From an uncultured Actinomycetota bacterium (GTDB lineage: Bacteria > Actinomycetota > Actinomycetes > Mycobacteriales > Mycobacteriaceae), in NCBI GenBank assembly GCA_963809285.1, contig CAWEIY010000002.1, positions 494,033 to 526,032 of the forward strand: a stretch of 32,000 nucleotides of DNA. Direction: 5' to 3'. Both the position numbers and the translations under genes were made by a program. Below, in pieces: positions 2,447-16,713 of the stretch; the stretch's first letter is position 1, and every line of letters begins with the position of its first letter. The notes under the pieces are model-generated. The model saw only the letters and a list, made by a program, of their open reading frames with translations. It had not been told where the DNA came from and made no database searches.

Positions 2447-3094
2447 TCAGAACTGAACGCGCGGAGCTTCGCGCGCCTCCGGAGCGGCTGCCTCAAGCGG
2501 TGCTGCCGCGGTGAAGCCGAACATGCCCGCGAACAGGGCGGCCGGGAACACCTCGCGCTTGTTGTTGTAATTCATGACCGTGTCGTTGTAGGCCTGGCGG
2601 GCGAAAGCAACACGGTTCTCAGTCGAGGTGAGTTCCTCCGAGAGTTGCATCATGTTCTGGTTGGCCTTGAGGTCTGGATATGCCTCACGCAGCGCGAACA
2701 GCTTGCCGAGAGCTCCAGTCAGCGCGCCTTCCGATGCCGACAGCTGACCCATGGCGGCGGGGTCACCCGGGTTGGCGGCGGCGGCGGTCCGTGCGGTGAC
2801 CGCGGAGTTGCGTGCCTGAACGACCGCTTCAAGGGTGCCGCGCTCGTGGGCCATGTAGGCCTTGGCGGTTTCGACGAGGTTCGGGATCAGGTCGTGACGC
2901 CGGGTCAGCTGGACGTCGATCTGCGCGAAGGCGTTCTTGTAGCCGTTCCGCGCACGGACGAGCGAGTTGTAGACGCTGAACGCAAAGAACGCGAAGAACA
3001 ACAGGATCACCAGGACTACGGCGACCACAACAATGCTTATGACCACTTGTTCCGCCTTTGCTGTTGGTACGGACAGTTCTCGCCATGGTGCCAC
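2447..3094 (-). CDS. lemA: LemA family membrane protein
   Basis: 215-aa ORF with GTG start and an N-terminal TM helix. It shows the LemA-type pattern YNSLVRARNGYKNAFAQIDVQLTRRHDLIPNLVETAK. It sits immediately upstream of the M48 protease on the same strand. Confidence 0.85.
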   Translation of the reverse strand: MAPWRELSVPTAKAEQVVISIVVVAVVLVILLFFAFFAFSVYNSLVRARNGYKNAFAQIDVQLTRRHDLIPNLVETAKAYMAHERGTLEAVVQARNSAVTARTAAAANPGDPAAMGQLSASEGALTGALGKLFALREAYPDLKANQNMMQLSEELTSTENRVAFARQAYNDTVMNYNNKREVFPAALFAGMFGFTAAAPLEAAAPEAREAPRVQF

Positions 3095-3261
3095 AATTGT
3101 CCGAAGTCGATGGCGACTAGTGCCACCCGACGGCTGGTTGGGCTCGCGTACCGGGTAGTTAGCCGCGAGACACCCCCGTCATCGGCGAACGCGGCATCAA
3201 GTGCCTGATCTCACCGCCAGGGTGAAGTGCCGTTGGTGACGTGTGGAGCTAATCTCCGCGC

Positions 3262-3450
3262 GTGCGCAACATCCAGACCATCGACGGGGAACTCCGGCTA
3301 CTGGTCGCGATTCGCCACATGGTCCGCGAGGCCGACGGTCGGTCGCCGAGTACCGCGCAGATAGACGGGTTGCTGGATGAGCGGGCGGCCGTAGCCGCAG
3401 CACGATGGTGGCCACGCTTGGAATCAGCCGAGCAGCCAGCTATGCGGTAG
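3262..3450 (+). CDS. small hypothetical protein, window-internal paralog family (copy A)
   Basis: 62-aa ORF with GTG start (VRNIQTIDGELRLLVAIRHMVREADGRSPSTAQIDGLLDER). It is clearly paralogous to 4286-4447 at both protein and DNA level, including about 45 bp upstream. Confidence 0.45.
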   Translation: MRNIQTIDGELRLLVAIRHMVREADGRSPSTAQIDGLLDERAAVAAARWWPRLESAEQPAMR

Positions 3451-3544
3451 CAGCGTTATCGCCGGCGTGGGAGAACCGGCGTGGGAGAAACAGCGACCGC
3501 GTGCCGGACGTGTGGCACCGAGCCCTCGAGAAGGCGCGGTTCTG

Positions 3545-3904
3545 TCAAGGACGTGGCTCACCGGTTGCCGAGCTCGCCGCTGATGATGTCATCCGGTTCT
3601 CGACCTTGAACGCTCCGGCGAAGCGAACCTCCAAAAGCTCGGTGAGGTCGCCCGCGGCGTGGCGGTCTTCGATAGCCGCCCGAAATCGGGCAGCCGTATC
3701 TGCAACGTCACCGGTCAGCGAGTAGATAGCCAGAAATCCCGGCTCGCCAGGTTCCGTGCTTCGGTAGAGCGTCGCTGTGTCGACGCCGTCCACGGCGAGA
3801 GCATTACGAAACTGGACCTCCGCGTACCAGGTCAAGAACTCCTCAACGCGCTCCTCGTCACGACAACTGGTGAGGGCAACGAAGATGCCATCGCCATCGC
3901 TCAT
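3545..3904 (-). CDS. hypothetical protein
   Basis: The track ORF is 3545-4024. I prefer the internal ATG at 3904 (MSDGDGIFVALTS...), which gives 119 aa, because the upstream 40 aa are Arg-rich junk. Coding-like GC3; no family recognised with confidence. Confidence 0.45.
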   Translation of the reverse strand: MSDGDGIFVALTSCRDEERVEEFLTWYAEVQFRNALAVDGVDTATLYRSTEPGEPGFLAIYSLTGDVADTAARFRAAIEDRHAAGDLTELLEVRFAGAFKVENRMTSSAASSATGEPRP

Positions 3905-4285
3905 TCGCTCTGCTCCCGTCGCTCCCAACAAATCTCGATGGGCGATCGAGACTCGACCGGTCGACGGCCGCTCTCCACCGCTTCGTGGTCCATCATGGCA
4001 GTGCTCGACGGACCGCCGACGCAATAACTGCTTGAGGCGACCTCAGTTCCAACGCAGCCCCAACTCGGCCAAGAGGGCATACTCGGCTGCGAATGGCTTC
4101 TTCGGTTTGCGCCTAACCGCCTTCGTAGTCAGGCTGCGGCTGCCGATGTACACCGGGACGAACAGTTCCCCCAGCAGTCGATCCGGTGCTCCAACTCCAC
4201 CAGGCGAGATGTTCAATCTGAACCTTTCCTCGTCCGGTCACGTGGGTGAAGTGTGAATAACAGTGCGCGGCCTCAAGCTCCGCGC

Positions 4286-4447
4286 ATGCGCGACCTCGAG
4301 ACCATCGACGCCGAACTACGGCTAGTAGTCGGGGCGTGGCGCCTAGCTCGGGTGTTGAACGACCGGACACCGAGCACTGCGGACATAGACGAGCTGCTGG
4401 ACGAGCGCTCGGCAGCCCTCAGCCGCATTGAGGTCCATTCGGCCTAG
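4286..4447 (+). CDS. small hypothetical protein, window-internal paralog family (copy B)
   Basis: MRDLETIDAELRLVVGAWRLARVLNDRTPSTADIDELLDER. The ATG at 4286 aligns with the start of copy A; the track start at 4253 is probably too far upstream. Confidence 0.45.
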   Translation: MRDLETIDAELRLVVGAWRLARVLNDRTPSTADIDELLDERSAALSRIEVHSA

Positions 4448-4710
4448 GGAGTGTGCCCGGCAAAGACGCCGAGTATCCGAACAGATGGGCTTTGCCTGGG
4501 GGTGGTTCCCCAGCCTCACATGGGTGGCATGGCACAGCACAAGTTCGACGCAAAGTAACAACCAACAAATCAGGAGACAACAATGTACGGAATCGATCTC
4601 GACCCGCAAACCACATCCGACTATTGGGCATACTACTTGCGCGTCATGAAGGAGGCGAAGACGCATTGAGCGCCCGTTCGACCTGGCATGGTTGATAACG
4701 AGACCAAGGG

Positions 4711-5178
4711 CTATGGGGCCATGCCGGAGTCGATCCAGCGTTGGAAGACGTTTATCTTTTCGGCGCTCCAGGCGCCGTCACAGGGCATCGACCCATCGCG
4801 AAGGCGTTCGACGATGGCCGCCGCGTGGGACTTGACGTCGGTGTAGGACCACAGGTCGAACGCCCACTTCATCGACTCACGGTCATCTTGCCGGAACAGC
4901 GGTTTGATGTTGCGCTCGAACACGACCGGCTCGCCTGCGCCTGGTAGTGGCACAGGCGGCGCGGTCGACGATTCGGTGTGACTCGTGCCGGGAGGAGGGG
5001 ACGCTGGTGTCCCGTGCCCCACTATTCCGGGAGTGGTGCTGGCTTGTGAACCGAAGTTGATCGACGGGTGCTGCTCAGATGTCGGGGCGGAACTCGAGCA
5101 GCCGGAGACCAACGCGACAGCCGCCGCCGTCGCGGCCACGGCCGGCAGCGCGGTGAGCGAGCGATGGGGCTGAGGCAT
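4711..5178 (-). CDS. putative lipoprotein
   Basis: 155-aa ORF with a signal peptide and lipobox (AAAVALVSGC). A Pro/Ser/Thr-rich linker is followed by a C-terminal domain containing FERNIKPLFRQDDRESM...MPCDGAW. A GGGAGG Shine-Dalgarno sequence lies about 12 nt upstream of the ATG. Confidence 0.7.
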   Translation of the reverse strand: MPQPHRSLTALPAVAATAAAVALVSGCSSSAPTSEQHPSINFGSQASTTPGIVGHGTPASPPPGTSHTESSTAPPVPLPGAGEPVVFERNIKPLFRQDDRESMKWAFDLWSYTDVKSHAAAIVERLRDGSMPCDGAWSAEKINVFQRWIDSGMAP

Positions 5179-5302
5179 GACGGTTGTAAGCCTCCCTGGT
5201 GGATAACGAGCCCGCGGATGCGAAGTACTCGCTTAGAGGTAGGGCGGCGAGTTACACCGGCCGCACCAACGCCGCGGCGTCTCACTTCTTGCCTCACAAC
5301 GT

Positions 5303-5398
5303 GCCAACGCCGAGAAGGGCATTCAGGCGGTCAAGAAAGCCGCTGCCTACGCGGCCGTTGTCGACCTGACCGAAGAGGGCGCGAAGAAATCAGGGTGA
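5303..5398 (+). pseudogene. C-terminal remnant of a YegP/DUF1508-like gene (copy A)
   Basis: Encodes ANAEKGIQAVKKAAAYAAVVDLTEEGAKKSG*. There is no start codon and no upstream homology in frame. It is about 80 percent identical to 9600-9680 by eye. Confidence 0.4.
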
Positions 5399-5399
5399 A

Positions 5400-5510
5400 G
5401 TGACGCCGGTCGCGCGCGGACATACCCCCGCACTGGCTGCGGACTGGGGTATCGAAGGCCTCGAGAAGGCGTTCGGCGGCAGGACGGTCTATGCGGGCTT
5501 GAGCGTAACG
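5400..5510 (+). pseudogene. possible 5' remnant of an ABC-transporter ATPase gene
   Basis: A GTG at 5400 begins 1 bp after the remnant stop codon. The translation ...IEGLEKAFGGRTVYAGLSV resembles the N-terminus of ABC ATPases, but no Walker A motif follows. It abuts the 3' end of the oxidoreductase gene. Confidence 0.3.
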
Positions 5511-5527
5511 TGCTGTGCCTGGGAGTG

Positions 5528-6490
5528 TTACGCCACGTTCAGCAGGATCTTGCCGCCACGGAGGAGATGCTGCACCGCGTCCTGGATGTGCTCGAGGGGG
5601 TACACGCCCGCCACGGGGACAACGAGGGCGCCGTCGGCCACCAGCGGTGCCGCCTCACGAATGACAGGCACCACCTTGTCGCGGTAGTCGAAGTCGCCGA
5701 CAAAGAATCCGCGGACGGTGAGGTGCTTGCCGACCAGTGTCGAGGTGTCGACCCACATGGGTTCGTCCCTGGCCCAGGAATAGCTGACCAACCATCCACC
5801 GTCGGACAGCAATTCGAGCAGCCGCGCCACCCCCGGACCACCGACGGCTTCCACTGCCAGCGCCACTCGCGCGTCGCCGATCACTGCACGAACATCGCCG
5901 ACCGCATCGGGGTCATCGACGTGGACCACGTCGGCCCCGGCTGCTGTGAGCTCGGCGAACGTTGCGTCGTCACGGACCAGGTTGATCGTCTTCAGTCCAC
6001 GAAGTTTGGCTAGCGCGATCAATGACCGTCCCACACCGGAGTTCGCGGCGTTCTGAACCACCCAGTCACCGGGCTGCAGGGGGGTGCATTCACTGAGCAT
6101 CAACCCTGCCGTCGGGGGGTTGCTGCCCAGCATCGAGTACTGCTCGATGTTGCCGCCGGCGGGGAGTGCGAACAGGCCGTCGGCGGGCACGACGAGCCGC
6201 TCACGCCACGCACCGGCATACAGGGGTAGCACGACCAGATCGCCGACTTGAAGTCCATCGACCTCGGCGCCAGTGGCAAGCACGCGGGCGACCCCCTCTG
6301 CGCCTGGTATGTGGGGCAGGGGTGGTCGCGCCAGCATGCCGCTGACAACCAGTAGGTCGTGTTTGTTCAACGGCGAGACCTCAACGCTCAACAGAACTTC
6401 ATGCGGACCCGGTGGCGGCGGCTCCTCGATGTCGACGACGCGGAGCACCTGCGCGGGGTCGCCGAACTGTTCCATCTGGATGGCGCGCAT
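5528..6490 (-). CDS. zinc-independent MDR-superfamily oxidoreductase (quinone oxidoreductase / enoyl reductase-like)
   Basis: The track ORF extends to 6535. I prefer the ATG at 6490 (MRAIQMEQFGDPAQVLRVV...), giving 320 aa. It has the GroES-like N-domain and a Rossmann motif region (AANSGVGRSLIALAKLRG) typical of QOR/ETR-type MDR enzymes. Confidence 0.85.
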   Translation of the reverse strand: MRAIQMEQFGDPAQVLRVVDIEEPPPPGPHEVLLSVEVSPLNKHDLLVVSGMLARPPLPHIPGAEGVARVLATGAEVDGLQVGDLVVLPLYAGAWRERLVVPADGLFALPAGGNIEQYSMLGSNPPTAGLMLSECTPLQPGDWVVQNAANSGVGRSLIALAKLRGLKTINLVRDDATFAELTAAGADVVHVDDPDAVGDVRAVIGDARVALAVEAVGGPGVARLLELLSDGGWLVSYSWARDEPMWVDTSTLVGKHLTVRGFFVGDFDYRDKVVPVIREAAPLVADGALVVPVAGVYPLEHIQDAVQHLLRGGKILLNVA

Positions 6491-6566
6491 ATCAATTCCT
6501 CTCGATCGAAAGGTCAGGCCGCTATGGAGGACCATCCGACTCCGCTGTGGTACGTAGCGTAAGGCA

Positions 6567-6906
6567 ATGAGTCTGAGCCGGAAGGTCTACGCGCCGCTCC
6601 CTCCCTACGCCGACGAACGGCGGTTCGCTGACGCGTGCTGCGACGAGCTTGCGCCGTACTTCCACATCGAGCGTGAGGTGCCGCTCACTCGCTGGACAAA
6701 GGTGACGCTGATCGTGGACGCAGTGATGCGGCCCCGCGATCCGACGCCATGGAAGGACGACCAGCCGATCTTCGCGGTCGAGTTCAGGAGCGTTCGAAAT
6801 CGACTGGCACGTTCGATACAGCCTGGGCGGCGCAGTCTGTCGACGGGTTTACAACCTGCGTACAACACAGGCGTTTCCAAACCGCTTATCAGGCGCATAT
6901 GTGCTA
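6567..6906 (+). pseudogene. possible gene remnant truncated at the tRNA fragment
   Basis: The first ~75 codons have coding-like GC3 (…IVDAVMRPRDPTPWKDDQPIFAVEFRS, faintly PD-(D/E)xK-like). Composition then degrades and the frame reads straight through the tRNA-Tyr fragment. Confidence 0.25.
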
Positions 6907-6965
6907 GTGGTGGCAGGTACTGGATTCGAACCAGTGAAGCTTTCGCGACGGATTTACAGTCCGCT
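6907..6965 (-). repeat. orphan 3' portion of tRNA-Tyr (distal att repeat)
   Basis: 59 bp identical to 14447-14505. It covers the tRNA from the anticodon stem-loop through the T arm, acceptor stem and CCA. No matching 5' half follows it. Confidence 0.9.
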
Positions 6966-7299
6966 GACACGCATTCGCCTGTGTTCGCTGGTGTTCAGTT
7001 TCACCGGGACTACCAGCGCTTTTTAGCCTCGGACGTTCACCGGTATTCGCGGGCGTCGGGCACGAGATGTGACACGCTCGTGACACCGAGAATTCTTCCC
7101 GCAAAATGCGGATGGCCCCGGCGGCGGCAGGCAGCGCCCCGGGGAATGGCCGACCAACAAGGAGTCGACATACGTCACAAGCGACCACCCGCGGCGCCGG
7201 GCCGAGGCTACGATCACATCGCTTAGAGCGATGCCGCAAATGGTGCCGCGTGAAGAGGAATACATGCCAGCTAAACCCAGGAAAATCACGCTCGCGGCG

Positions 7300-7647
7300 C
7301 TAGCCGTCTGCTCGATTCTTGCCGCCCTGCGCACGGCCGACGAACCGCCAGCCGCCCCCGACGGGGATGTTGCCCAGCTTCTTGACATCGACATGGATTA
7401 GGGCGCCGGGATGATCGTGTTCATAACGGCGAATCTGTTCACCGGTGCGGATGTCGATGTGCGACAACCGGTTGAGCCGGCACCGCACAAGCACCGCATG
7501 AACTGTCGAGGCCGCAACAGACAATCTGGAAGCGATCGCCAACGGCGATAGCCGATACCGCCATCGCAAGTGCACAATCCGTCGAACGACAACGCCTGGC
7601 GTGCGGTTGGGACTGTGGTGAGGTCGACTCGACCTATCCGACATCCC
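7300..7647 (-). mobile_element. IS481-family transposase internal fragment
   Basis: Translation DRSSRPHHSPNRTPGVVVRRIVHLRWRYRLSPLAIASRL...GEQIRRYEHDHPGALIHVDVKKLGNIPVGGGWR matches the region from the HTH to the first catalytic Asp of IS481-type DDE transposases. The N-terminal ~45 aa and the rest of the DDE domain are missing. Confidence 0.7.
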
Positions 7648-7656
7648 GGCCGCACC

Positions 7657-7716
7657 CATAGCCAAATCCGTTGCCGCCGAGGTCATCATCTCCGGCGCCG
7701 CGATCACATACGACAT
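7657..7716 (-). pseudogene. PE-family gene N-terminal stub fused in frame to the IS481 fragment
   Basis: MSYVIAAPEMMTSAATDLA resembles the canonical PE N-terminus (compare [19 protein letters not shown] at 10319 and MSNVMVAPEFVRQAAGQL at 13329). PE homology stops after about 20 codons. Confidence 0.55.
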
Positions 7717-7857
7717 GCACGTCCACCGCCTAACTAGCTAGCCCCTGGTTGTCACTAGCCCGGCGGTCCCTCCACCCGCATGGGTGTAAGGATCATAGAC
7801 AGTCTTGGGCTGTCCGTTACTGGCTTTTGTAAATAGTCGGCAGCCCCACCGCCGTGA

Positions 7858-7947
7858 CTGCGCGACATCGAGACCATCGATTCCGAGCTGCGATTGGTGG
7901 CGGCTCTTCGCTGCCCGCCCAGGCGGGGCCGCTCTACGGGCCGATGA
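7858..7947 (+). pseudogene. degenerate third copy of the small paralog family
   Basis: Encodes LRDIETIDSELRLVAALR. The start position is CTG and is directly preceded by an in-frame TGA. A premature stop follows, and the ADEGQEP stretch that weakly aligns with IDELLDER lies in another frame. Confidence 0.35.
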
Positions 7948-7950
7948 GGG

Positions 7951-8241
7951 TCAGGAACCGGCCTCTCCGAGCAGGCGTAGTTGGGCCGCTGCTATCAGTG
8001 CCTCGGCTTCTGCAATTACTGCTTCTGCCGCCGCCTTCGCTTCTGCCGCTGCCGCTGCCGCTGCTGCCTCGGCCTCTGCTTCCTCGGCGCGGCGCGCCGC
8101 GTCTCCGCGAGTCACCGCCAGCGCGTAAATCAACACCCCGGCGCAGGCTACGACGGACACCACCGGCCCCGCTGCGGCGGTGACGATGAACGCAAAGGAA
8201 AAGCTCAACACAATGAGCCAAATAAGCCTCCTCATCATCAT
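7951..8241 (-). CDS. hypothetical small membrane protein with Ala/Glu-rich tail
   Basis: 96-aa ORF with two hydrophobic segments followed by AEEAEAEAAAAAAAAEAKAAAEAVIAEAEALIAAAQ. Codon usage is AT-richer than neighbouring genes, so this could be a foreign gene or a spurious ORF. Confidence 0.35.
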   Translation of the reverse strand: MMMRRLIWLIVLSFSFAFIVTAAAGPVVSVVACAGVLIYALAVTRGDAARRAEEAEAEAAAAAAAAEAKAAAEAVIAEAEALIAAAQLRLLGEAGS

Positions 8242-8411
8242 GGACGTTAAGTCGGCTCGTACCGCATTTACGTTACCCAGGACCCGCAGGAGATCCGCGA
8301 CCTCGCGACCATGCGCGAACTGGCCTCCAAGGTGCTGGCGTCGGCCGACGACGAGATCGACGCGCTTAACGCTGACTGAAACCTCCTCAGTCGATCCATC
8401 CGCCGTCTAAC

Positions 8412-8492
8412 CGGAACCAGCGCGCAACAGTCCGCGGCTGAATAGTTGATCGGGCCGCCCCTGCTCTCCTCGGGGGCGGCCCGAATGTTCAG
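8412..8492 (+). repeat. ~80-bp hairpin repeat element, copy 1
   Basis: GGAACCAG...CTGAATAGTTGATCGGGCCGCCCC-tgctctcctcg-GGGGCGGCCCGA...TCAGG. It lies between the convergent 3' ends of the 8251-8379 remnant and the SDR gene. Confidence 0.85.
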
Positions 8493-8606
8493 GCGAGCAG
8501 CCAGTCCCCATAGCTGATGGCTGCCCAAACTCCGCAATAGGGGCAACGCCAGACGATTCACCACCTGCACTGCGATCATCGCCATTGACTTCCAGCACGT
8601 GCGTCA

Positions 8607-9392
8607 TCACAGGGTAGTGACGAAGCCGCCGTCGATGCGATAGTCGGATCCGGTGGTGTTCCCGGCGCGGTCGCTGGCAAGGAAGACGACGAGGTCGGCG
8701 ACTTGTTCGGGAGTGGTGAAACGGCCCGTCGGAGTGTTGTTTGCGATCGTCGCCCGGAGTTCCTCGGCCGTCCGGCCGTCGGCGGCGGCATACTCAGCGG
8801 CCAACCTGCCCTCTTCGGTCCAAATCTCGGTCAGCACCGCCCCCGGGCTGACCAAGTTAACTCGGATGTTCTTCGGCGCCAACTCTATTGACAATGCTTT
8901 CGAAAAATTGGCGACGGCAGCTTTGGCGGCGCAATAGTCATAGGTCTCGGGATTGGCAAGGTAGGCGTTGATCGAGCCGATAATGACGATAGAGCCACCG
9001 CCACGCCTTTCGATCTGGGGCAGTGCGGCGCGGGTGGATCGCACGGCGGCCATCACGTTGAGATCCCACGACGCTTGCCACTCGTCGTCGGTGATGCTGG
9101 CCAACCCGCCCGCGCGCACCTTCGCACCGCCGACGTTGTTGACCAGAATGTCGATCCCGCCGCGCTCGGCTGCCACGGCGACCAGCTCGTCGGCGGCGCC
9201 GGGCTGGGACAGGTCGACGGGCACGAACGACACCTGCCCCATCTCTTGAAGCGCCGGCAGTCCCTTCCCAGGGGTCCGTGACCCGGCTACCACGTGCACT
9301 CCCGCATCCACGAGGGCTTTGGCGATCGCGAAACCGATGCCCTTGCTGGTGCCGGTGACCACTGCGGTCTTCCCCGATAGATGCAGATCCAT
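8607..9392 (-). CDS. short-chain dehydrogenase/reductase (classical SDR)
   Basis: The track ORF extends to 9527. I prefer the ATG at 9392 (MDLHLSGKTAVVTGTSKGIGFAIA), giving 261 aa. Motifs TGxxxGIG, NNVG and YDYCAAK (YxxxK) are present. Confidence 0.9.
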   Translation of the reverse strand: MDLHLSGKTAVVTGTSKGIGFAIAKALVDAGVHVVAGSRTPGKGLPALQEMGQVSFVPVDLSQPGAADELVAVAAERGGIDILVNNVGGAKVRAGGLASITDDEWQASWDLNVMAAVRSTRAALPQIERRGGGSIVIIGSINAYLANPETYDYCAAKAAVANFSKALSIELAPKNIRVNLVSPGAVLTEIWTEEGRLAAEYAAADGRTAEELRATIANNTPTGRFTTPEQVADLVVFLASDRAGNTTGSDYRIDGGFVTTL

Positions 9393-9545
9393 GCCCGTCC
9401 TTCCCGCGTCCGCGGCGCGCACGACGCTACCGGTGTACCGTGACCGACCGGCTAGACGATCTGCACCGGCAAGCGTCGGGGCGATAAACCGCGACCGTAC
9501 CCCAGCAAATGGCCCTGGGAGCCTCACCGCTCGGGGGCCGTTGTT

Positions 9546-9680
9546 TTCAAGGCAGCCAACGGCGAGATCATCGCCGCCAGCCAGGCATCTGAAAAGAAGG
9601 CCAACGCGGAGAAGGGAATTGAGGCGGTCAAGAAAGCCGCTGCCGACGCGGCAGTTGTCGACCTGACCGAAGTGAAGTGA
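9546..9680 (+). pseudogene. remnant of a YegP/DUF1508-like gene (copy B)
   Basis: FKAANGEIIAASQASEKKANAEKGIEAVKKAAADAAVVDLTEVK* fits the DUF1508 repeat pattern (LKAxNGEIIxxS...A.KGIxSVK). The frame is open back to 9456 but contains no ATG, GTG or TTG. Confidence 0.5.
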
Positions 9681-9740
9681 CGCCAGCCGCGGCGTCCTGG
9701 ACCCACCGCGACATCCCGCGCTGCTCGATTGAATAGCGTC

Positions 9741-10088
9741 TCAGCGCGCGCCCGAAAAGGTGACCGGGTCATCGGGCCAGCCCGATCCTTCGCGGTGGAC
9801 GGCCGTCACATAGACCAGCACGCAAGTGGCGATGACGAGTGCCAGTGTTATCAGAGCCAGCACCCAAGTGGCCCTCGTTAAGCGCGCCGTCGCCCGACGG
9901 TCCGCTTTCATCCGGTGCTCGACCACCCAGGCATCCATAAGATTCTGCGGGCTGATATTGGTGGTTTGCGGGGAGACAGCGAATGCCTTCCAAATCGCGA
10001 CAAGGCGTTCCTTGTCCACCTTGGTAGGCAGGGGCAGCTGGTCTTCGTTGTCCTTCTTACTCACGGTGTTTGAGGCTAGCGGGCGCAT
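9741..10088 (-). CDS. hypothetical single-pass membrane protein
   Basis: I prefer the ATG at 10088 (MRPLASNTVSKK...), giving 115 aa with a C-proximal TM helix (TWVLALITLALVIATCVLVYVTAV). The longer track ORF (to 10394) would translate through hairpin repeat copy 2. Confidence 0.5.
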   Translation of the reverse strand: MRPLASNTVSKKDNEDQLPLPTKVDKERLVAIWKAFAVSPQTTNISPQNLMDAWVVEHRMKADRRATARLTRATWVLALITLALVIATCVLVYVTAVHREGSGWPDDPVTFSGAR

Positions 10089-10098
10089 CTGCGGCGAC

Positions 10099-10182
10099 GG
10101 AACCAGATCGCTCCCGTCCGCATCTGACTTAGTTGATCGGGCCGCCCCTGCTATCCCCTGGGCGGCCCGATTCATCGTCAGG
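10099..10182 (+). repeat. ~80-bp hairpin repeat element, copy 2
   Basis: GGAACCAG...CTGACTTAGTTGATCGGGCCGCCCC-tgctatcccct-GGGCGGCCCGAT...TCAGG. It lies in the divergent region between the 10088 start (-) and the PE_PGRS start (+). Confidence 0.85.
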
Positions 10183-10318
10183 GGCTCTGACCACACGGTG
10201 AAACGGTGGTTGAACAATGCCGATTTGGGCTGCGTTACCAATTCGACGCGCGTAGCGTTCTGCCGCTGTCTTGAGGATTGTTCTAAGGTGGTGTCGCCCG
10301 AGGTGATGGGAGCCGCAG

Positions 10319-12223
10319 ATGTCGTCTTTTGTGGTCGCAGTACCGGAGGCTTTGGCCACCGCGTCGCAGGATTTGACCGGGATCGGATCGGCAATCCGGG
10401 CGGCCAATGCGGCGGCAGCAGCGCCCACGACAGGGGTGCTGGCCGCCGCGGGTGATGAGGTGTCGGCGGCGATCGCGTCGCTGTTTTCCGGCAATGCCCA
10501 GCAGTATCAGGCGCTGAGCGCCCAGGCCGCGGCGTTTCATTCCCAGTTCGTGCAGACCCTCAATGCGGGTGCGGCTGCCTACGAGAGCACCGAGGCCGCC
10601 AACGTCACGCAGACTCTGCTGAGCACGGTCAACGCGCCCACAGACCGTCTGCTCGGGCGTCCGCTGATCGGCAACGGCGCCAACGGCACGACCAACGCGC
10701 AAGGGGTAGGCACGCCCGGCGGGGCCGGGGGGATCTTGTACGGCAACGGCGGCAACGGCGGGAATAGCACCGTTACCTCCGGGGCACCCGGCGGTAACGG
10801 CGGTCCGGCCGGGTTGATCGGCACCGGCGGCACCGGCGGTATGGGCGGGCGGGGCGCCGCCGGCGGGGCGGGCGGCATCGCGGGGTTGCTGTGGGGCAAC
10901 GGCGGTTCCGGCGGCCCCGGCGGGCCCGCCGCCGGCACCCTCACTGGCGGTAGCGGCGGTCCCGGCGGCATCGGAAGGTTGTTCTTCGGCAACGGTGGCA
11001 CCGGCGGGGTCGGCGGAGCCGGCGGAACCGGTGCAGCCGGCGCAGGCGGGGAGGGCGGGGCGGGCGGCCTCCTGTTCGGCCACGGCGGCAACGGCGGGGC
11101 CGGCGGAGCCGCCGGGGCCGCCGGAACCGGCGCAGGCGGGAGGGGCGGGGAGGGCGGCCTCCTCTTCGGCACCGCTGGCACCAGCGGAGCCGGCGGGTCC
11201 AGCAACGCCGGCGCCCCCCTCGTGCTCACGGCCAACAACCAGGTGGGCGTCATCGGCGTGGCGAACACGGCGTTAATCCTGGGCGGCACCGGATTCACCC
11301 CGCTACATGCGCTCACCGGCGCGACAGGGCCGGGTATCTCTGGCTACGTCACGGCAGTGGAGCAGCTCTACCTCTCCTCCAACTATGCCGGGTACACCCC
11401 GGAATTCCTGGTAACGCCGGAGGAGTTATACCCGCTTACCGGCCTGAGAAGCCTGACTTTCGACGTGTCGGTGGCGCGCGGTGTCAACGATCTGAACGCT
11501 GCGATCATGGCCCAACAGGCAGCGGGACACAGCACCGTCGTTTTCGGCTACTCCCAGAGCGCCACAATAGCCACCCTGGAAGAGCGCCATCTCATGACCC
11601 TGCCTGCCACCCAACGGCCGAGTACCGACCAGCTCTCCTTCGTGCTGGTCGGCAATCCGGACCGGCCCGACGGCGGGCTCCTCGAGCGCTTCAACGGTCT
11701 CTTCATCCAAGATTTGGGCTTCACCTTCTTCGGCGCGACCCCGGTCAATGCCTACCCGACCACCGATATCGCGATCCAGTACGACGGCGCCGCCGACTTC
11801 CCGCAGTACCCGCTCGATATCTTTGCGGACGCCAATGCCGTCGCGGGCTTCATTTCCCTGCACCCCCAGTATTCGTATCTCACGCCCAGCCAGATTGCGT
11901 CAGGTGTGATCGAGCCGGTGTCCCCGACGGACACCGAGACCACCTACATCCTGATTCCAACCCAGAACCTGCCGCTGCTGGACCCGGTACGTGCCATCCC
12001 CTTCGTGGGGAACCCGCTGGCCGACCTGGTGCAACCGGACTTGAAGGTGCTCGTCGAATTGGGCTACGACCGCAGCGCATATCAGGATGTGCCGACCCCC
12101 TCTGGGCTGTTCCCGAACGTCGACCCGGCCACCGTCGCCGCCGAGCTGCAGCAAGGGGCCGTGCAAGGTGTCAACAACGCACTGGCCGATGAGGGATTGC
12201 CGGCGCTGCCGGGTCTTGTCTGA
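10319..12223 (+). CDS. PE_PGRS family protein with C-terminal PE-PPE (alpha/beta serine hydrolase-like) domain
   Basis: 634 aa. The PE domain spans residues 1-95 ([24 protein letters not shown]...) and includes a YxxxE secretion motif (YESTE). A Gly-rich region with GGxGG-type (e.g. GGAGG, GGNGG) repeats covers about residues 125-300. The C-terminal ~320 aa carries the nucleophile-elbow-like [10 protein letters not shown] (Ser412, nt 11552-11554) and later conserved Asp and His candidates ([14 protein letters not shown]). Confidence 0.9.
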
Positions 12224-12407
12224 GCATCCGTTGATCAGCGGATCGACTCGCCCGTGGTTCCGAGGGTTTGCGTTCCGGCGCGCTGCGCGACCGGTGAAAG
12301 CCACCGAGTTCCTTTTAAAGGAACCCCGGAATGACCAGTTGCCTTGTCGATCCCTAAATAGAAATACCCACCGCATCATCGGGAACCGTCGGCGTCGCCC
12401 CAGGGAT

Positions 12408-12492
12408 GGAACCAGCGCGCCGCCGCGCGCGTCTGAATAGTTGATCGGGCCGCCCCTCGCTCTCCTGGGGGCGGCCCGATCTCTCGGTCAGG
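12408..12492 (+). repeat. ~80-bp hairpin repeat element, copy 3
   Basis: GGAACCAGCGCGC...CTGAATAGTTGATCGGGCCGCCCC-tcgctctcctg-GGGGCGGCCCGATC...TCAGG, with a perfect 14-bp stem. It lies about 185 bp downstream of the PE_PGRS stop. Confidence 0.85.
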
Positions 12493-12549
12493 TGGGGTTG
12501 CGCCGTTCAGCGGATCCGCATTTACGGCCGAGCTGGACGGGTTGACACA

Positions 12550-12885
12550 ATGACCGCCATGGACACCCCGTTGATGCGGCTCGCGCGCTACATCGACGAC
12601 CACTACGGCGACCCGCTACTATCCGAGCCCGGTGACGACGTCCGCATCTATCGCACCGCATCAATGACGCTGTGCTGTCGCGGTTTCGGCCCCGAAGACC
12701 GAACCGACCCGGTGACGGTGCCGATCGAGACCGCCGCCGCCACACTGTCCTCGACACCCTCGGAGATCGTCGACGTCGCCCTGTCCGACAAAATCACAGA
12801 CCCAGACAACCTTGGCGTCGTGCTGGTCACTGACGGGTTGTGTTTGCACGTGCAGCGCTCATGGCTGGATGCGGTGGCCGACTAG
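12550..12885 (+). CDS. hypothetical protein
   Basis: 111-aa ORF with ATG start and strong GC3 bias typical of real mycobacterial genes. No family recognised. Confidence 0.5.
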   Translation: MTAMDTPLMRLARYIDDHYGDPLLSEPGDDVRIYRTASMTLCCRGFGPEDRTDPVTVPIETAAATLSSTPSEIVDVALSDKITDPDNLGVVLVTDGLCLHVQRSWLDAVAD

Positions 12886-13328
12886 ATGGCAGCCAGCACC
12901 GGCACAACGGAGCCTTGTGGCTCCACAACATCAGGACGACTACTGCATGCCGGGCGGTTGACCGATGCTGAATGTGTTCCGTGCACACCCCCAAACGTTA
13001 AGGAGGTGAGTTAGACGCTAGCGCAGATTCTGAGTCCCGAGATGATAGGCACGGTTGCGATTGCATCGTGGTCTGTGATCGGTCGACGCCAGCGCCAACG
13101 TATCCGCCGCGCCTGGACGCAAATTCGAAACAAATTTTCTGTGCAGGAGCCGTCACGCTCAGCACCGTGGGCGGTGGAACCGGCCCCAGGAACCCCTTCG
13201 AACCCAGGGGCCGGCCCACCTTTTTCTCGGCGCGGCTAGGAAGTTAGCTGTTTTAAGGATTTCGATCGCGCCGACCCCTTTCCTTCGATACGCTTGTTGT
13301 TCTTCATGTGTCTGATAGGAGGTAGGCC

Positions 13329-13793
13329 ATGTCCAATGTGATGGTGGCGCCGGAGTTTGTGCGCCAGGCGGCAGGGCAATTGCAGAACATTGGCTCCTCC
13401 TTGACTGAGGCCAATGCGGCGGCATCGACGCCCACGACCGCGGTGCTGGCCCCGGCTAGTGATGAGGTGTCGGCGGCCATTACGGCGCTGATGGGAACCC
13501 ACGCTCAGCAGTTCCAGGCCGTCAGTGCCCAGGCGGCGAAGTTTCATAGCCAGTTCGTGGGCTTGTTGAACACTGGCGCGGCCGCGTACTCGGGCACCGA
13601 AGCCGCCAATACCCAACCCCTCGCCGATCTAACGCCCGAAGAAATCGTAGATATCAACCACAAGGACGCGGCCTTAATCGAAGCGCTAGCGGAAAACGAC
13701 CTCCGCGCCGGACGTTCCGACCTGACACGCATCGACGACAGAATACGTAGGTACACCCTGCTCAAAACGCTTATACCGATCTATAGCCCCTAG
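13329..13793 (+). CDS. PE family protein (PE domain plus short unique tail)
   Basis: 154 aa (MSNVMVAPEFVRQAAGQLQNIGSSLTEANAAASTPTTAVLAPASDEVSAAITAL...) with a YSGTE (YxxxE) motif. A GGAGG Shine-Dalgarno sequence lies 5 nt upstream of the ATG. The C-terminal ~55 aa are AT-richer. Confidence 0.8.
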   Translation: MSNVMVAPEFVRQAAGQLQNIGSSLTEANAAASTPTTAVLAPASDEVSAAITALMGTHAQQFQAVSAQAAKFHSQFVGLLNTGAAAYSGTEAANTQPLADLTPEEIVDINHKDAALIEALAENDLRAGRSDLTRIDDRIRRYTLLKTLIPIYSP

Positions 13794-13890
13794 CCGGCGG
13801 CGCCCAAAAGCGATGCGGCTCAACTGCGCTCCGTTTGGGTCAAGTGCTTTCATGCTGGGAACGCGGCGCCCGCAGGGATGCAGGAGGTAA

Positions 13891-14418
13891 GCCGTCGCCC
13901 TCGCGGGCGCCGACGAGTTGCCGCCGCGCTCCATTCGTATTGCGGAAAACCGGATTTACCTTCCGGGCCGAATCGTGGAGAGCACCCCCAAATCCAAGGC
14001 GTCCAATCGGACATTGCCTATGCCTGACGAAATTGTGGAAATCCTCAAGGCGGCCCGCAAGCGCCAACTTGAAGAGCGGCTGGCATTCGGGGTCGGATAC
14101 GGCGGCGCGGAATACGTCGGCACCGATGAGACCGGCCAGCCGTACACCCCCAACGTCCTGTCGTATCGCTGGGGCAGGATGCTCGACGTGTTGGAGATCA
14201 AGCGGGTGCGGCTACACGACGCGCGGCACAGCTGCGCGACCCTAATGCATCACCGGCAGGTGCCCATCGCCGTCATCGCCGCGTGGCTGGGGCACGCCAA
14301 CGCAGCGTTCACCATGGCCACCTACGCACACTCCCAAGACGCCGCGCTGCGGTCCGCCGCAGGCAGTTTCGGTCGAGGTGTGACATTCGGTGACACCGAA
14401 GCCGGCTCGGGGGACTGA
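13891..14418 (+). pseudogene. tyrosine recombinase (phage-type integrase), C-terminal catalytic fragment only
   Basis: Translation ...PKSKASNRTLPMPDEIVEILK...RLHDARHSCATLM...IAAWLGHANAAFTMATYAH contains the Arg, HxxR and terminal Tyr catalytic motifs. The frame is closed by TAA at 13888-13890, so at most ~175 aa remain of an expected 330-400 aa. It ends 29 bp from the tRNA-Tyr 3' end. Confidence 0.8.
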
Positions 14419-14447
14419 CGCACCCCCAGAAACATGCTCTGAGCTGG

Positions 14448-14531
14448 TGGTGGCAGGTACTGGATTCGAACCAGTGAAGCTTTCGCGACGGATTTACAGT
14501 CCGCTCCCATTGGCCGCTCGGGCAACCTGCC
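14448..14531 (-). tRNA. tRNA-Tyr (anticodon GTA), with encoded CCA
   Basis: Manual cloverleaf: GGCAGGT-TG-CCCG-AGCGGCCAAT-GGGA-G-CGGA-CTGTAAA-TCCG, then TCGCGAAAGCTTC as the remaining stretch containing the long variable arm, then ACTGG-TTCGAAT-CCAGT-ACCTGCC-A-CCA. As I recall the E. coli tRNA-Tyr sequence, the layout is near-identical. Confidence 0.95.
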
Positions 14532-14600
14532 GCCAGACAGGTTACAACGAACGGGTAGACAGGGCACAAACGGCTATCACCGGATGAAAGGACGGATCGA

Positions 14601-15092
14601 ATGGCTGACTCATCGTTCGACATCGTCAGCAAGGTCGACCGGCAGGAGGTCGACAACGCGTTGAATCAGGCGGCCAAGGAGCTGGCCACCCGCTTCGACT
14701 TCCGCGGCACCGACACCAAGATCGCGTGGAAGGGCGACGAGGCCGTCGAGCTGACGTCGTCGACTGAGGAGCGCGTGAAGGCGGCCATCGACGTCTTCAA
14801 GGAGAAGCTGATCCGCCGCGACATCTCGATGAAGGCGTTCGACGCCGGGGAGCCGCAGGCGTCGGGGAAGGCCTACAAGGTCACCGGCACGCTCAAGCAG
14901 GGCATCGACAGCGAGAACGCCAAGAAGATCACCAAGCTCATCCGCGACGAGGGACCCAAGAACGTCAAGACCCAGATCCAGGGCGACGAGGTCCGCGTCA
15001 CCAGCAAAAAGCGTGACGATCTGCAGGCCGTCATCGCGATGCTGAAGAAGGCCGACCTGGACGTGGCGCTGCAGTTCGTCAACTACCGGTAG
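14601..15092 (+). CDS. yajQ: YajQ family (UPF0234) nucleotide-binding protein
   Basis: 163 aa ([36 protein letters not shown]...) with the typical YajQ N-terminus and length. The position corresponds to Rv0566c. Confidence 0.9.
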
Positions 15093-15134
15093 CAATGCAC
15101 GCCCGTGTCAGATACGCGCCGAGCGTGACGTCAC

Positions 15135-15160
15135 GGCGAAAATTCGCGCCGTTTTTCGCC
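15135..15160 (+). terminator. candidate hairpin downstream of yajQ
   Basis: GGCGAAAA-ttcgcgccgt-TTTTCGCC, with 8-bp arms, lies 43 nt after the yajQ stop. There is no clear U tract. Confidence 0.3.
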
Positions 15161-15204
15161 GTGGCGTTACGCTCGCCGCGCTCGTTTTCGAAGCGAGGTT
15201 CGCG

Positions 15205-16713
15205 ATGACACCAACCCCCCGGGAAGCCGACTACTTCGACGTCATCATCGTCGGCGCCGGCATCTCCGGCATTGGCGCGGCCTACCGGATCACGGAGCGC
15301 AACCCGCAGTTGACCTACACCATTCTGGAGCGGCGCGCGCAGATCGGCGGTACCTGGGACTTGTTCCGCTACCCCGGTGTTCGCTCGGACAGCACCATCT
15401 TCACGCTGTCTTTTCCGTTCGAGCCGTGGACCCGGAGAGAAGGGGTCGCCGACGGCGTCCACATCCGCGAATACCTGACCGCCACCGCGCACAAGTACGG
15501 CATCGACCGTCACATCCAGTTCGAGAGCCACGTCCGCTCGGCGGATTGGGATTCGTCCACCGACACGTGGACCGTCACCGTCGAACAAGACGGCGCCAGC
15601 AAGCTTTACCGCGGCCGGTTCGTGTTCTTCGGCAGCGGTTACTACAACTACGACGAGGGCTACACCCCCGACTTCCCCGGCATCGAACGTTTTGGCGGCA
15701 CCGTCATACATCCCCAGCACTGGCCGGAAGACCTGGACCACGCCGGCAAGAAGATCGTGGTGATCGGCAGTGGAGCCACGGCGATCACGCTGATCCCGTC
15801 GCTGACCGACCGCGCCGAAAAGGTCACCATGCTGCAACGTTCGCCGACCTACATCCTTTCGGCGTCCAAATACGGCGCCCTCTCCGCTGTGGCTCGTAAA
15901 GTGTTGCCCCGCAGAGCTTCCCACTTAGTCATTCGGATGTACTACGCACTAGTGGAGGCGGTGCTCTGGTTCTTTTCCCGCAAGGCCCCGGGGTTAGTCA
16001 AATGGCTGCTGAGGCGCACCGCGATCAACAACTTGCCCGACGGCTACGACGTCGACACCCACTTCAAGCCGCGGTATAACCCGTGGGACCAGCGGATGTG
16101 TTTGATCCCCGACGCCGATCTCTACACCGCGATCACCGCGGGCCGCGCCGAGGTGGTCACCGATCACATCGATCATGTCGACGCCGCCGGCATCGCGCTC
16201 AAATCCGGCGGACACCTCGACGCCGACATCATCGTCACCGCCACCGGGCTACAGCTGCAGGCGCTCGGCGGCGCGGCGATCAGCCTGGACGGCGCCGAGG
16301 TCAAGCCGCAGGACCGCTTCGTCTATAAGGCGCACATGCTCGAAGACGTGCCCAACCTGTTCTGGTGCGTGGGCTACACCAACGCGTCGTGGACGCTGCG
16401 CGCCGACATCACCGCCCGGGCAACGGCAAAACTGCTGGCGCACATGGCTTCTCATGGCTACACCCACGCCTACCCACACCTGGGCGACCGACCAATGGCC
16501 GAAAAACCGTCCTGGGACATTCAGGCCAACTATGTGAAGCGGGCGTTGCACGCACTGCCCAAGTCCGGCACCAAGCGGCCGTGGAACGTACGGCAGAACT
16601 ATCTCGCCGACGCCATCGACTTCCGGTTCGACCGCATCGAGGAGGCGATGGTGTTCGGCGGTGCCGGCGACCACTCGGGTGAACCGCTACAAAATGCGCG
16701 GTTACGGCAATAG
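15205..16713 (+). CDS. flavin-containing / Baeyer-Villiger-type monooxygenase
   Basis: 502 aa with an FAD motif (IIVGAGISGIGAA), an FMO/BVMO fingerprint region (FGGTVIHPQHWPED) and a second Rossmann motif (VVIGSGATA). Position and sequence resemble Rv0565c. Confidence 0.9.
   Translation: MTPTPREADYFDVIIVGAGISGIGAAYRITERNPQLTYTILERRAQIGGTWDLFRYPGVRSDSTIFTLSFPFEPWTRREGVADGVHIREYLTATAHKYGIDRHIQFESHVRSADWDSSTDTWTVTVEQDGASKLYRGRFVFFGSGYYNYDEGYTPDFPGIERFGGTVIHPQHWPEDLDHAGKKIVVIGSGATAITLIPSLTDRAEKVTMLQRSPTYILSASKYGALSAVARKVLPRRASHLVIRMYYALVEAVLWFFSRKAPGLVKWLLRRTAINNLPDGYDVDTHFKPRYNPWDQRMCLIPDADLYTAITAGRAEVVTDHIDHVDAAGIALKSGGHLDADIIVTATGLQLQALGGAAISLDGAEVKPQDRFVYKAHMLEDVPNLFWCVGYTNASWTLRADITARATAKLLAHMASHGYTHAYPHLGDRPMAEKPSWDIQANYVKRALHALPKSGTKRPWNVRQNYLADAIDFRFDRIEEAMVFGGAGDHSGEPLQNARLRQ

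Follow-up and report, generated by a model that had tools for sequence, protein, structure and literature searches.

The temperate phage Che9c is predicted to use a tRNA-Tyr gene as its attachment site; the attB is given as about 57–60 bp, its coordinates span 60 bp and the identity to Mycobacterium tuberculosis is 53/57 (PMC2884959). In the tRNA-gene islands catalogued by Islander, one end is marked by an intact tRNA gene with a tyrosine integrase gene beside it, and the other by a displaced 3′ fragment (PMC4383910). Within Mycobacterium, PE/PPE genes have been reported inside predicted genomic islands of M. avium (PMC7823733), and ESX-secreted cargo has been reported in prophages, while Che9c, Dori and Sbash are reported to encode proteins that are likely to be secreted by ESX systems (PMC10654092); an association of PE genes with an island is therefore not unprecedented. 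The locus described here lies in a 32,000-nucleotide stretch, referred to as the window, from an uncultured member of the Mycobacteriaceae (GenBank assembly GCA_963809285.1, contig CAWEIY010000002.1, positions 494,033–526,032). In it, a segment of about 7.5 kb, bounded by a direct repeat, adjoins a tRNA-Tyr gene. We consider it probable, at roughly 85%, that this segment is a decayed element of the Che9c/Dori tyrosine integrase family inserted in tRNA-Tyr, no longer mobile by its own means, remodelled in its interior and present as a strain-variable allele.

The only tRNA identified by ARAGORN in the window is an intact tRNA-Tyr(GTA) on the minus strand at 14448–14531 (Rfam tRNA, 52.6 bits), and tRNA was the sole Rfam family found in a scan of 3000–15500. 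Positions 14447–14505, part of this gene, are repeated at 6907–6965 in the same orientation with 59/59 identity. The repeat contains the encoded CCA, the acceptor 3′ strand, the T arm, the variable arm and the complete anticodon stem-loop, and sits within a weaker similarity of 66 bp (2 mismatches) starting at 6900 and 14440. The 57-nt core pattern matches at the two repeat sites only and gave 0 matches in 100 shuffles, and a sensitive scan of the window revealed no third or degenerate copy. Beyond 6965 the left copy diverges, so that the 5′ half of the tRNA is missing there. An island of the anticodon-loop class characteristically has the intact tRNA at one end and a direct repeat of the 3′ part of that tRNA at the other, as here. 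On the basis of the repeat identity and of the phage attP boundary described below, 14447–14505 is the attL core and 6907–6965, the displaced tRNA-Tyr 3′ part from CCA through the anticodon stem-loop, the attR core.

Beside the intact tRNA lies an integrase pseudogene on the plus strand (13876–14418), of which only the C-terminal 177 codons are present. An in-frame TAA at 13888–13890 follows the box-I Arg codon; the open frame starts after it, at 13891, and ends in a stop codon at 14416–14418, 29 bp from the tRNA 3′ end. An integrase gene thus adjoins the regenerated tRNA, in an arrangement that Dori and Mycofy1 share. The fragment matches the Pfam Phage_integrase family (PF00589; 4e-13, profile positions 62–170 of 172) and the PHROG 1 integrases (3e-26). 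It was compared with full-length integrases of 396–437 amino acids found beside tRNA-Tyr in other mycobacteria. In tblastn searches with two of these (loci L036 and L060), homology extends from 13876 to about 14376 at 50–51% identity and corresponds to residues 220–386 of 396; the first 219 or so residues have no tblastn counterpart across the whole 32 kb. The box-I Arg (GCRR at 13876–13887, Arg codon 13882–13887) is cut off from the remainder by the TAA. The open frame keeps the Lys (TPKSK), HxxR (HDAR), His (GH) and Tyr positions, all of which align with invariant columns. A full-length tyrosine recombinase of about 390–400 amino acids, with N-terminal arm-binding and core-binding domains, is not encoded here. 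Judged by its sequence, the gene is a dead C-terminal third, a pseudogene fragment rather than a functional member of the family. As about 219 N-terminal residues are gone and the frame is interrupted, the element is immobile by its own means.

Matches in the phage collection are to the integrase of Rhodococcus phage REQ2 (56%) and, at 46%, to the tyrosine integrases of Dori, Mask, Mao1, Sejanus, Mycofy1, ThulaThula, Che9c and Sbash. In Dori, Mask, Mao1 and Mycofy1, a 65-bp stretch resembling tRNA-Tyr lies on the opposite strand, 30 bp past the integrase stop codon, which is the arrangement seen in the window. The tRNA homology of the phage att regions ends at ...ACAGTCCG(C/T), and the left copy in the window diverges at the same base; the end of the attP/attB homology, ...ACAGTCCGC, is common to the phages (Dori, Mycofy1) and the left copy.

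The window has just two occurrences of the motif TGTGACA-N3-6-GTGACA, where 0 are expected. One copy, at 7068–7085, lies within a putative P′ arm-type integrase-binding site (CGAGATGTGACACGCTCGTGACACCGAGA, 7063–7091, plus strand) 103 bp inside the left core. The other forms a putative P arm-type site (TGTGACATTCGGTGACA, 14379–14395, plus strand) inside the 3′ end of the integrase fragment, 52–68 bp from the core. Across all fetched loci (2.3 Mb) there are 39 matches, 37 of them outside the window; nearly all coincide with the 3′ end of a family integrase gene or lie in the spacer between integrase and tRNA, always on the integrase strand. Examples are L087 (1740 and 1970), L112 (11152) and L036 (9780), and the motif is kept whether or not the position is coding. 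In Dori a second copy lies 104 bp past the attP core, and in L077 a copy lies about 103 bp past a partial tRNA copy. We infer that the motif marks candidate P and P′ arm-type sites of this integrase family. As the boundary is shared with phage attP and arm motifs are present on both sides, 14379–14505 and 6907–7091 are likely to be a real attL and attR, both of them complete with a core and an arm, derived from one Dori/Che9c-type exchange between attP and attB in the anticodon stem-loop. Arm-type repeats flank the core on both sides, as in a Che9c/Dori-type attP, and the integrase would be predicted to bind there.

A sequence-only reading of the window had proposed much of this, namely a perfect repeat in one orientation, a left copy without the tRNA 5′ half, attL/attR of a tyrosine integrase acting between the anticodon loop and the 3′ end of the tRNA, an integrase fragment 29 bp from the tRNA and an immobilised element. 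These proposals are strongly supported by the comparison with phage attP boundaries, arm motifs and full-length relatives and by the lack of the segment in a near-identical strain, and the profile matches to 13891–14418 agree with the proposed integrase identity. One detail needs correction: the fragment downstream of the TAA was said to contain the catalytic Arg together with HxxR and Tyr. HxxR and Tyr are kept, as are Lys and His, and the TAA does lie upstream, but the Arg codon is on the far side of it. As for the full-length relatives with a matching attP that the reading proposed to look for, Dori and Mycofy1 have a tRNA-Tyr-like attP, and no intact version of this element was found.

The surroundings of tRNA-Tyr were compared across Mycobacteriaceae in a scan anchored on YajQ, with one genome per species, which returned at least 80 loci. 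To the right of tRNA-Tyr synteny is kept in all of the loci listed, and it breaks at the tRNA 3′ end. The left flanks differ in most of the at least 80 Mycobacterium species listed and form many unrelated groups, which identifies the region downstream of tRNA-Tyr as a Mycobacterium-wide recombination hotspot. Among the matches listed there is no conspecific and no locus that shares the left flank of the window; L036, L060, L059 and L064 each have a full-length relative of the integrase, placed and oriented as in the window. In L036 (Mycobacterium sp. M23085, complete genome) the 396-amino acid integrase is followed by tRNA-Tyr, and a 1201-amino acid TrwC-like relaxase and hsdR/hsdS accompany it. 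The 3′ half of tRNA-Tyr is itself mosaic across Mycobacterium (L001–L086), where four variants of the T stem and two of the variable arm occur in combination, as expected if it is repeatedly replaced by integrating elements.

Comparison at the level of species rests on one strain, L083 (ENA ERZ25039522 contig_83228), which was reached together with L084 and L086 through the flavin monooxygenase gene beside yajQ; searches for sequences identical to the PE_PGRS protein, to YajQ and to the 100% flavin monooxygenase match returned no entry. The flanks of L083 are about 99.7% identical to the window, with 0–4 differences per 500 bp over 3.9 kb leftward and 7 kb rightward. L083 tracks the window to 6960 and resumes at 14501; in place of 6961–14500 it has an unrelated 1508 bp (L083 7728–9330 corresponds to window 6900–14535) in which an MPT63-like DUF1942 gene, a PAS_3 gene and a MerR/HspR-like gene are found, and the junctions cut into the first and last of these. 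Over its 21.5 kb L083 has neither an intact tRNA-Tyr nor arm motifs. Because so close a strain lacks it, the 7.5-kb segment is not fixed in the species. In a sister lineage at about 94% nucleotide identity (L086), 1.03 kb separates the LemA-side flank from tRNA-Tyr, as against 11 kb (3422–14443) in the window; relative to the sister lineages the variable region covers about 3422–14447 (11 kb) and exceeds the 7.5-kb island. In other species (L039, L010) a homologous trailer is joined directly to tRNA-Tyr. A further sister lineage, L084, has a different type of island at the same tRNA (3827–4232). It includes a partial copy of 28 nt from the acceptor and T arm, which follows 22 bp similar to window 14426–14447, and an Integrase_N_phage fragment at the tRNA-distal end.

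The left part of the variable region includes a zinc-type quinone oxidoreductase (5531–6526, within a minus-strand gene at 5528–6535). Its nucleotide identity is 98.3% to L094 (a JGI metagenome contig), 96.8% to L082 (a Nocardia sp. assembly) and 92.9% to L081; the contexts of these copies are unrelated and homology ends at the gene edges. From this pattern the gene looks horizontally acquired and appears to behave as a gene-sized mobile unit, and it was for this reason rejected as a left-flank anchor in the search for an empty site. On the other side of the tRNA, between yajQ and the monooxygenase gene, a 28-nt inverted repeat (15115–15189) is conserved in L083, L084 and L086; its Rfam match to the Mycobacterium sRNA Ms_IGR-8 is weak, at 26 bits where the gathering score is 44.

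The island carries an intact PE_PGRS serine-hydrolase fusion on the plus strand (10319–12223). It combines an N-terminal PE domain (Pfam, 9e-35), Gly-Ala-rich PGRS repeats (5e-18) and a C-terminal PE-PPE domain (6e-80), all above cut-offs, and carries a GYSQS motif. The protein is colinear with P0243, with 87% amino acid identity in the C-domain and 65% in the PE domain, and GYSQS is conserved; it is presumed to be an ESX/type VII substrate. The hydrolase domain has its nearest relatives (86–93% in amino acids) in PE or PE_PGRS genes at ordinary places in the chromosome, for example between glnA4-like and cobB/map/ispG genes in L089 and in another core context in L091. DNA homology to these relatives ends within 15 bp of the gene ends, and divergence is mosaic, the hydrolase part being 90% identical at the nucleotide level against 74% for the PE part. 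A second gene (13329–13793, plus strand) encodes a 154-amino acid PE protein (Pfam PE, 1e-32), in which the PE domain and a LipY-like linker are followed by an unrelated tail; positions 3–110 of the NCBIfam LipY model match, below cut-off.

A search of 50,697 phage records found no PE domain. In 39 viral loci of this integrase family, obtained by a profile search of IMG/VR, the single PE match (L112) lies in host DNA beyond tRNA-Leu, and none is on the element side. As the closest PE_PGRS relatives occupy core sites and no PE domain was found in these phage records, the PE genes were probably not original cargo of the element; a cargo origin is possible without being favoured.

Among the other island genes, searches against PHROGs, Pfam and NCBIfam found no phage structural, lysis, replication or immunity genes; besides the dehydrogenase described below, the integrase and a transposase scrap are the only mobile-type matches, and in a tblastx comparison with the L112 element the integrase alone matches. 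As to conjugative functions, a search of the window with the L036 relaxase gave nothing, Pfam and NCBIfam gave no family match, and no relaxase, coupling protein or oriT was found. The transposase scrap (7249–7727, minus strand) is a fusion of the 5′ end of a PE gene, about 20 codons with upstream bases, to an internal IS481 piece. The region of the PE start shares 78% identity with the start of the L091 PE gene, and the IS481 piece corresponds to residues 34–189 of 330, without IS ends (66% identity to a Gordonia IS481 transposase by tblastn; NCBIfam NF033577, 1.9e-25). A short-chain dehydrogenase/reductase is encoded on the minus strand at 8607–9527, with its domain starting at about residue 46 (Pfam adh_short_C2, 1e-49; NCBIfam NF005095, 4e-69). 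Two orphan open reading frames (ORFs) match no Pfam, PHROG or NCBIfam family: one of 96 amino acids (7951–8241, minus strand), predicted to encode a small membrane or Ala-rich protein, and one of 111 amino acids (12550–12885, plus strand), which has only 5 relatives among 1.84 billion representative proteins and from these no functional clue. The orphan and intergenic stretches have no match in any of the fetched loci by tblastx or blastn.

Two scraps in the island have copies in the left flank. A frameshifted small-protein paralog (LRDIETIDSELRL..., 7856–7940, plus strand) has other copies at 3239–3380 and 4286–4440; the three encode (V/M)R(N/D)(I/L)(Q/E)TID(G/A/S)ELRL...LLDER, and the copy at 3239–3380 is kept beside LemA in the sister lineages. 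A segment of about 110 bp (9600–9691) is 93% identical to 5303–5414, where the left-flank copy carries a 20-bp insertion; read on the plus strand, the segment gives the C-terminus ...ANAEKGI(Q/E)AVKKAAA(Y/D)AAVVDLTEVK followed by a stop. A 74-bp repeat (GATCGGGCCGCCCC...GGGGCGGCCCGATC) forms a 12–15-bp GC hairpin (−38 to −51 kcal/mol) and is confined to the island, in three copies at 8412–8484, 10096–10171 (inside a doubtful minus-strand ORF, 9741–10394) and 12405–12480. It belongs to no Rfam family and is missing from all other fetched loci. The hairpins were considered as cassette boundaries and rejected, since their positions do not match the homology edges.

The history that we favour begins with entry of a Che9c/Dori-family integrase element, which could have been a temperate phage or an integrative mobilizable element, into tRNA-Tyr. 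Crossover in the anticodon stem-loop gave the gene a new 3′ part, now attL with its putative P arm (14379–14505), and displaced the old 3′ part by 7.5 kb, now attR with its putative P′ arm (6907–7091). Decay then removed the first 219 or so integrase codons together with all replication, structural and transfer genes, and left a stop codon in what survives of the integrase; the sequence bears out both of these stages. The 6.6 kb between the arms would have been rebuilt, and now holds the intact PE_PGRS hydrolase, the PE gene, the dehydrogenase and the two orphan ORFs as well as scraps. We infer that most of this interior was assembled by illegitimate or homologous recombination, after integration or within an accessory region, and did not arrive as phage cargo. 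The whole block would be one allele of the hypervariable locus downstream of tRNA-Tyr, and probably spreads between strains now only through homologous recombination in its flanks. As both att sites look complete, excision in trans by a cognate integrase might still be conceivable.

Several observations weigh against this history. The integrases closest to the fragment adjoin tRNA-Leu(TAA) rather than tRNA-Tyr: that of L112 is 70% identical in amino acids (75% in nucleotides over 427 bp), with tRNA-Leu at 11227–11303, and that of L134 is 68% identical, with tRNA-Leu at 1437–1511. The tRNA-Leu(TAA) and tRNA-Tyr(GTA) genes have a common anticodon arm, GACGGATTT(TA/AC)AGTCCGCT, in which they differ at two loop positions. 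Such similarity is in keeping with an integrase that recognizes its core at the anticodon stem-loop, and suggests that the target may switch easily between the two tRNAs within the family. No intact version of this element was found in viral or metagenome contigs; the fragment alone gave no match in viral contigs, and the best match in metagenome contigs, at 70% identity, was on short contigs. Within the species, no clean empty site was found in which the left trailer runs straight into an intact tRNA-Tyr. The insert of L083 splits tRNA-Tyr exactly between anticodon loop and stem, an allele that may reflect aberrant integrase-mediated recombination or a problem of assembly; the L083 assembly carries indel errors. 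Both copies of the repeat share a rare T-stem variant (CTGG/CCAG) that is missing from the sister lineages and whose exact sequence is found, among the other loci, in L030 and the left copy of L083 only. As crossover in the anticodon loop should leave one copy from the host and one from the element, this identity implies an attP that matched this host exactly, a later gene conversion or an earlier accretion. The tetranucleotide correlation of the island with the core (r 0.94–0.96) equals that of core with core, and the order of events inside the island is of our own reconstruction.

Base composition as a whole is not atypical. The GC content of the island is 0.631 against 0.64–0.70 in the core, and that of third codon positions (GC3) is 0.66–0.81 against 0.77–0.95, slightly lower. 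These values neither support nor refute an island, because a donor within Mycobacterium would give host-like figures.

In an alternative history, the PE_PGRS, PE and dehydrogenase genes would be true accessory cargo, with one internal deletion later removing the core genes and the 5′ two-thirds of the integrase. The island would then document horizontal delivery of pe genes through site-specific integration. The genes do sit between att sites that retain both arm motifs, and the block is missing from a 99.7%-identical strain. The M. avium islands (PMC7823733) and the proteins of Che9c, Dori and Sbash cited above offer precedents, as do M. abscessus prophages with ESX-secreted toxin cassettes (PMC10654092), and some mycobacteriophages encode distant homologues of the PE-PPE hydrolase domain. 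We nevertheless consider this unlikely: the phage records and the element sides of the 39 viral loci are free of PE domains, the nearest PE_PGRS-hydrolase relatives are chromosomal, and the interior, with its scraps and its duplicates of host left-flank sequence, calls for several events, not a single deletion.

Tandem accretion is a further, rather improbable, explanation. Here the two repeat copies would come from separate integrations, the left copy being what terminates an older island, whereas the integrase fragment would come from a later, unrelated element, so that 7.5 kb would be the size of no single element. In keeping with this, 3422–6906 is likewise lineage-specific and includes a gene 97–98% identical to genes in unrelated contexts, a Nocardia assembly among them. 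The trailer at 6849–6906 matches sequence beside the tRNA-Tyr of L039, a locus with a different integrase that reads outward. Sister L084 with its 28-nt partial copy and integrase N-terminal fragment, and the T-stem variant missing from the sisters, also fit such a history. But the P′ motif inside the left copy has the family, orientation and spacing expected for the partner of the P arm, the cores are identical at 59/59 positions without a third partial copy in the window, and the 7.5-kb unit could still be one element even if accretion took place to its left.

It is distinctly improbable that pe and pe_pgrs genes have here been caught in movement as cargo of a Che9c/Dori-family element, in a block that, with both att sites intact in core and arm motifs, could still be excised and transferred if a phage or element in the same cell provided a cognate integrase in trans; if so, the locus would reveal a site-specific route for the spread of the PE/PPE families, beside duplication and ESX-linked expansion. 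An origin of the direct repeat as a by-product of segmental duplication or as an artefact of metagenome assembly is barely credible, for although the window appears to be metagenome-derived, with its best protein matches solely in ENA/NCBI metagenome contigs, although the related L083 assembly has indel errors and an odd split tRNA, and although composition is host-like, the boundary of the repeat is exactly that of the phage attP homology, the arm motifs are placed around it as in Dori attP, an integrase fragment of the right family lies at the right distance and on the right strand, and analogous repeat pairs occur in L044 and L077.

Returning to the decayed-element history, the sequence-only reading had listed the contents of the island correctly (a PE_PGRS-hydrolase fusion, a PE gene, a PE::IS481 chimera, a dehydrogenase, orphan ORFs and a private 74-bp repeat), and PHROG, Pfam and NCBIfam agree with it that no recognisable phage gene is present besides the integrase fragment. 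Its description of the PE genes as cargo is not upheld, given their chromosomal relatives in core contexts, the restriction of homology to the gene and the phage records without PE; nor is their presence in an island as unusual as was thought, similar cases having been reported already (PMC7823733, PMC10654092). The flank left of 6907 is not part of a conserved core and belongs to the variable region, along with the horizontally acquired-looking quinone oxidoreductase. In the comparison with relatives that it proposed, L083 lacks the 7.5 kb and L086 the 11 kb, but neither provides a clean empty site, and GC, GC3 and tetranucleotides do not set the island apart.

The locus provides a well-documented example of the region downstream of tRNA-Tyr acting as a recombination hotspot across Mycobacterium, and of a single integrase family common to temperate phages (Che9c, Dori) and relaxase-bearing elements. 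It also indicates that decayed islands can hold intact PE_PGRS genes that vary between near-identical strains. The candidate arm site may be useful for mapping att sites and for designing vectors that integrate at tRNA-Tyr. Views of PE/PPE evolution are unchanged unless the PE genes are proven to be cargo.

Of the systems with which the island can be compared, the L036 and L060 elements share with it an integrase of 50–51% identity, a position beside tRNA-Tyr and an arm motif in the spacer between integrase and tRNA; unlike the window, elements of the L036 type have full-length integrases, a TrwC-type relaxase/helicase and type I restriction genes, none of which the window contains. PEST cassettes (PMC10654092) also place type VII-secretion substrates in prophage accessory regions near att sites. 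They consist, however, of WXG100/polymorphic-toxin/immunity triplets, whereas the window encodes canonical PE and PE_PGRS proteins and no toxin/immunity pair. With the islands of the Islander catalogue (PMC4383910) the locus has in common the intact tRNA, the displaced 3′ fragment and the tyrosine integrase beside the intact gene, and it differs in that the integrase is a pseudogene fragment and composition is not atypical; for these two reasons, island finders that require an integrase call may miss it. The integration cassettes of Che9c, Sbash and Mycofy1 (Chenonavirus) and of Dori belong to elements of 50–65 kb, in contrast to the 7.5 kb of the island, which keeps only the last third of the integrase and no phage gene. 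What survives in the window corresponds to these cassettes in the integrase family (46% amino acid identity over 160 surviving residues), in the alignment of all catalytic positions, in an integrase stop codon about 30 bp from an opposite-strand tRNA-Tyr 3′ part, in tRNA homology running from CCA to the anticodon stem, and in a two-sided arm motif with a P′ spacing of 103–104 bp.

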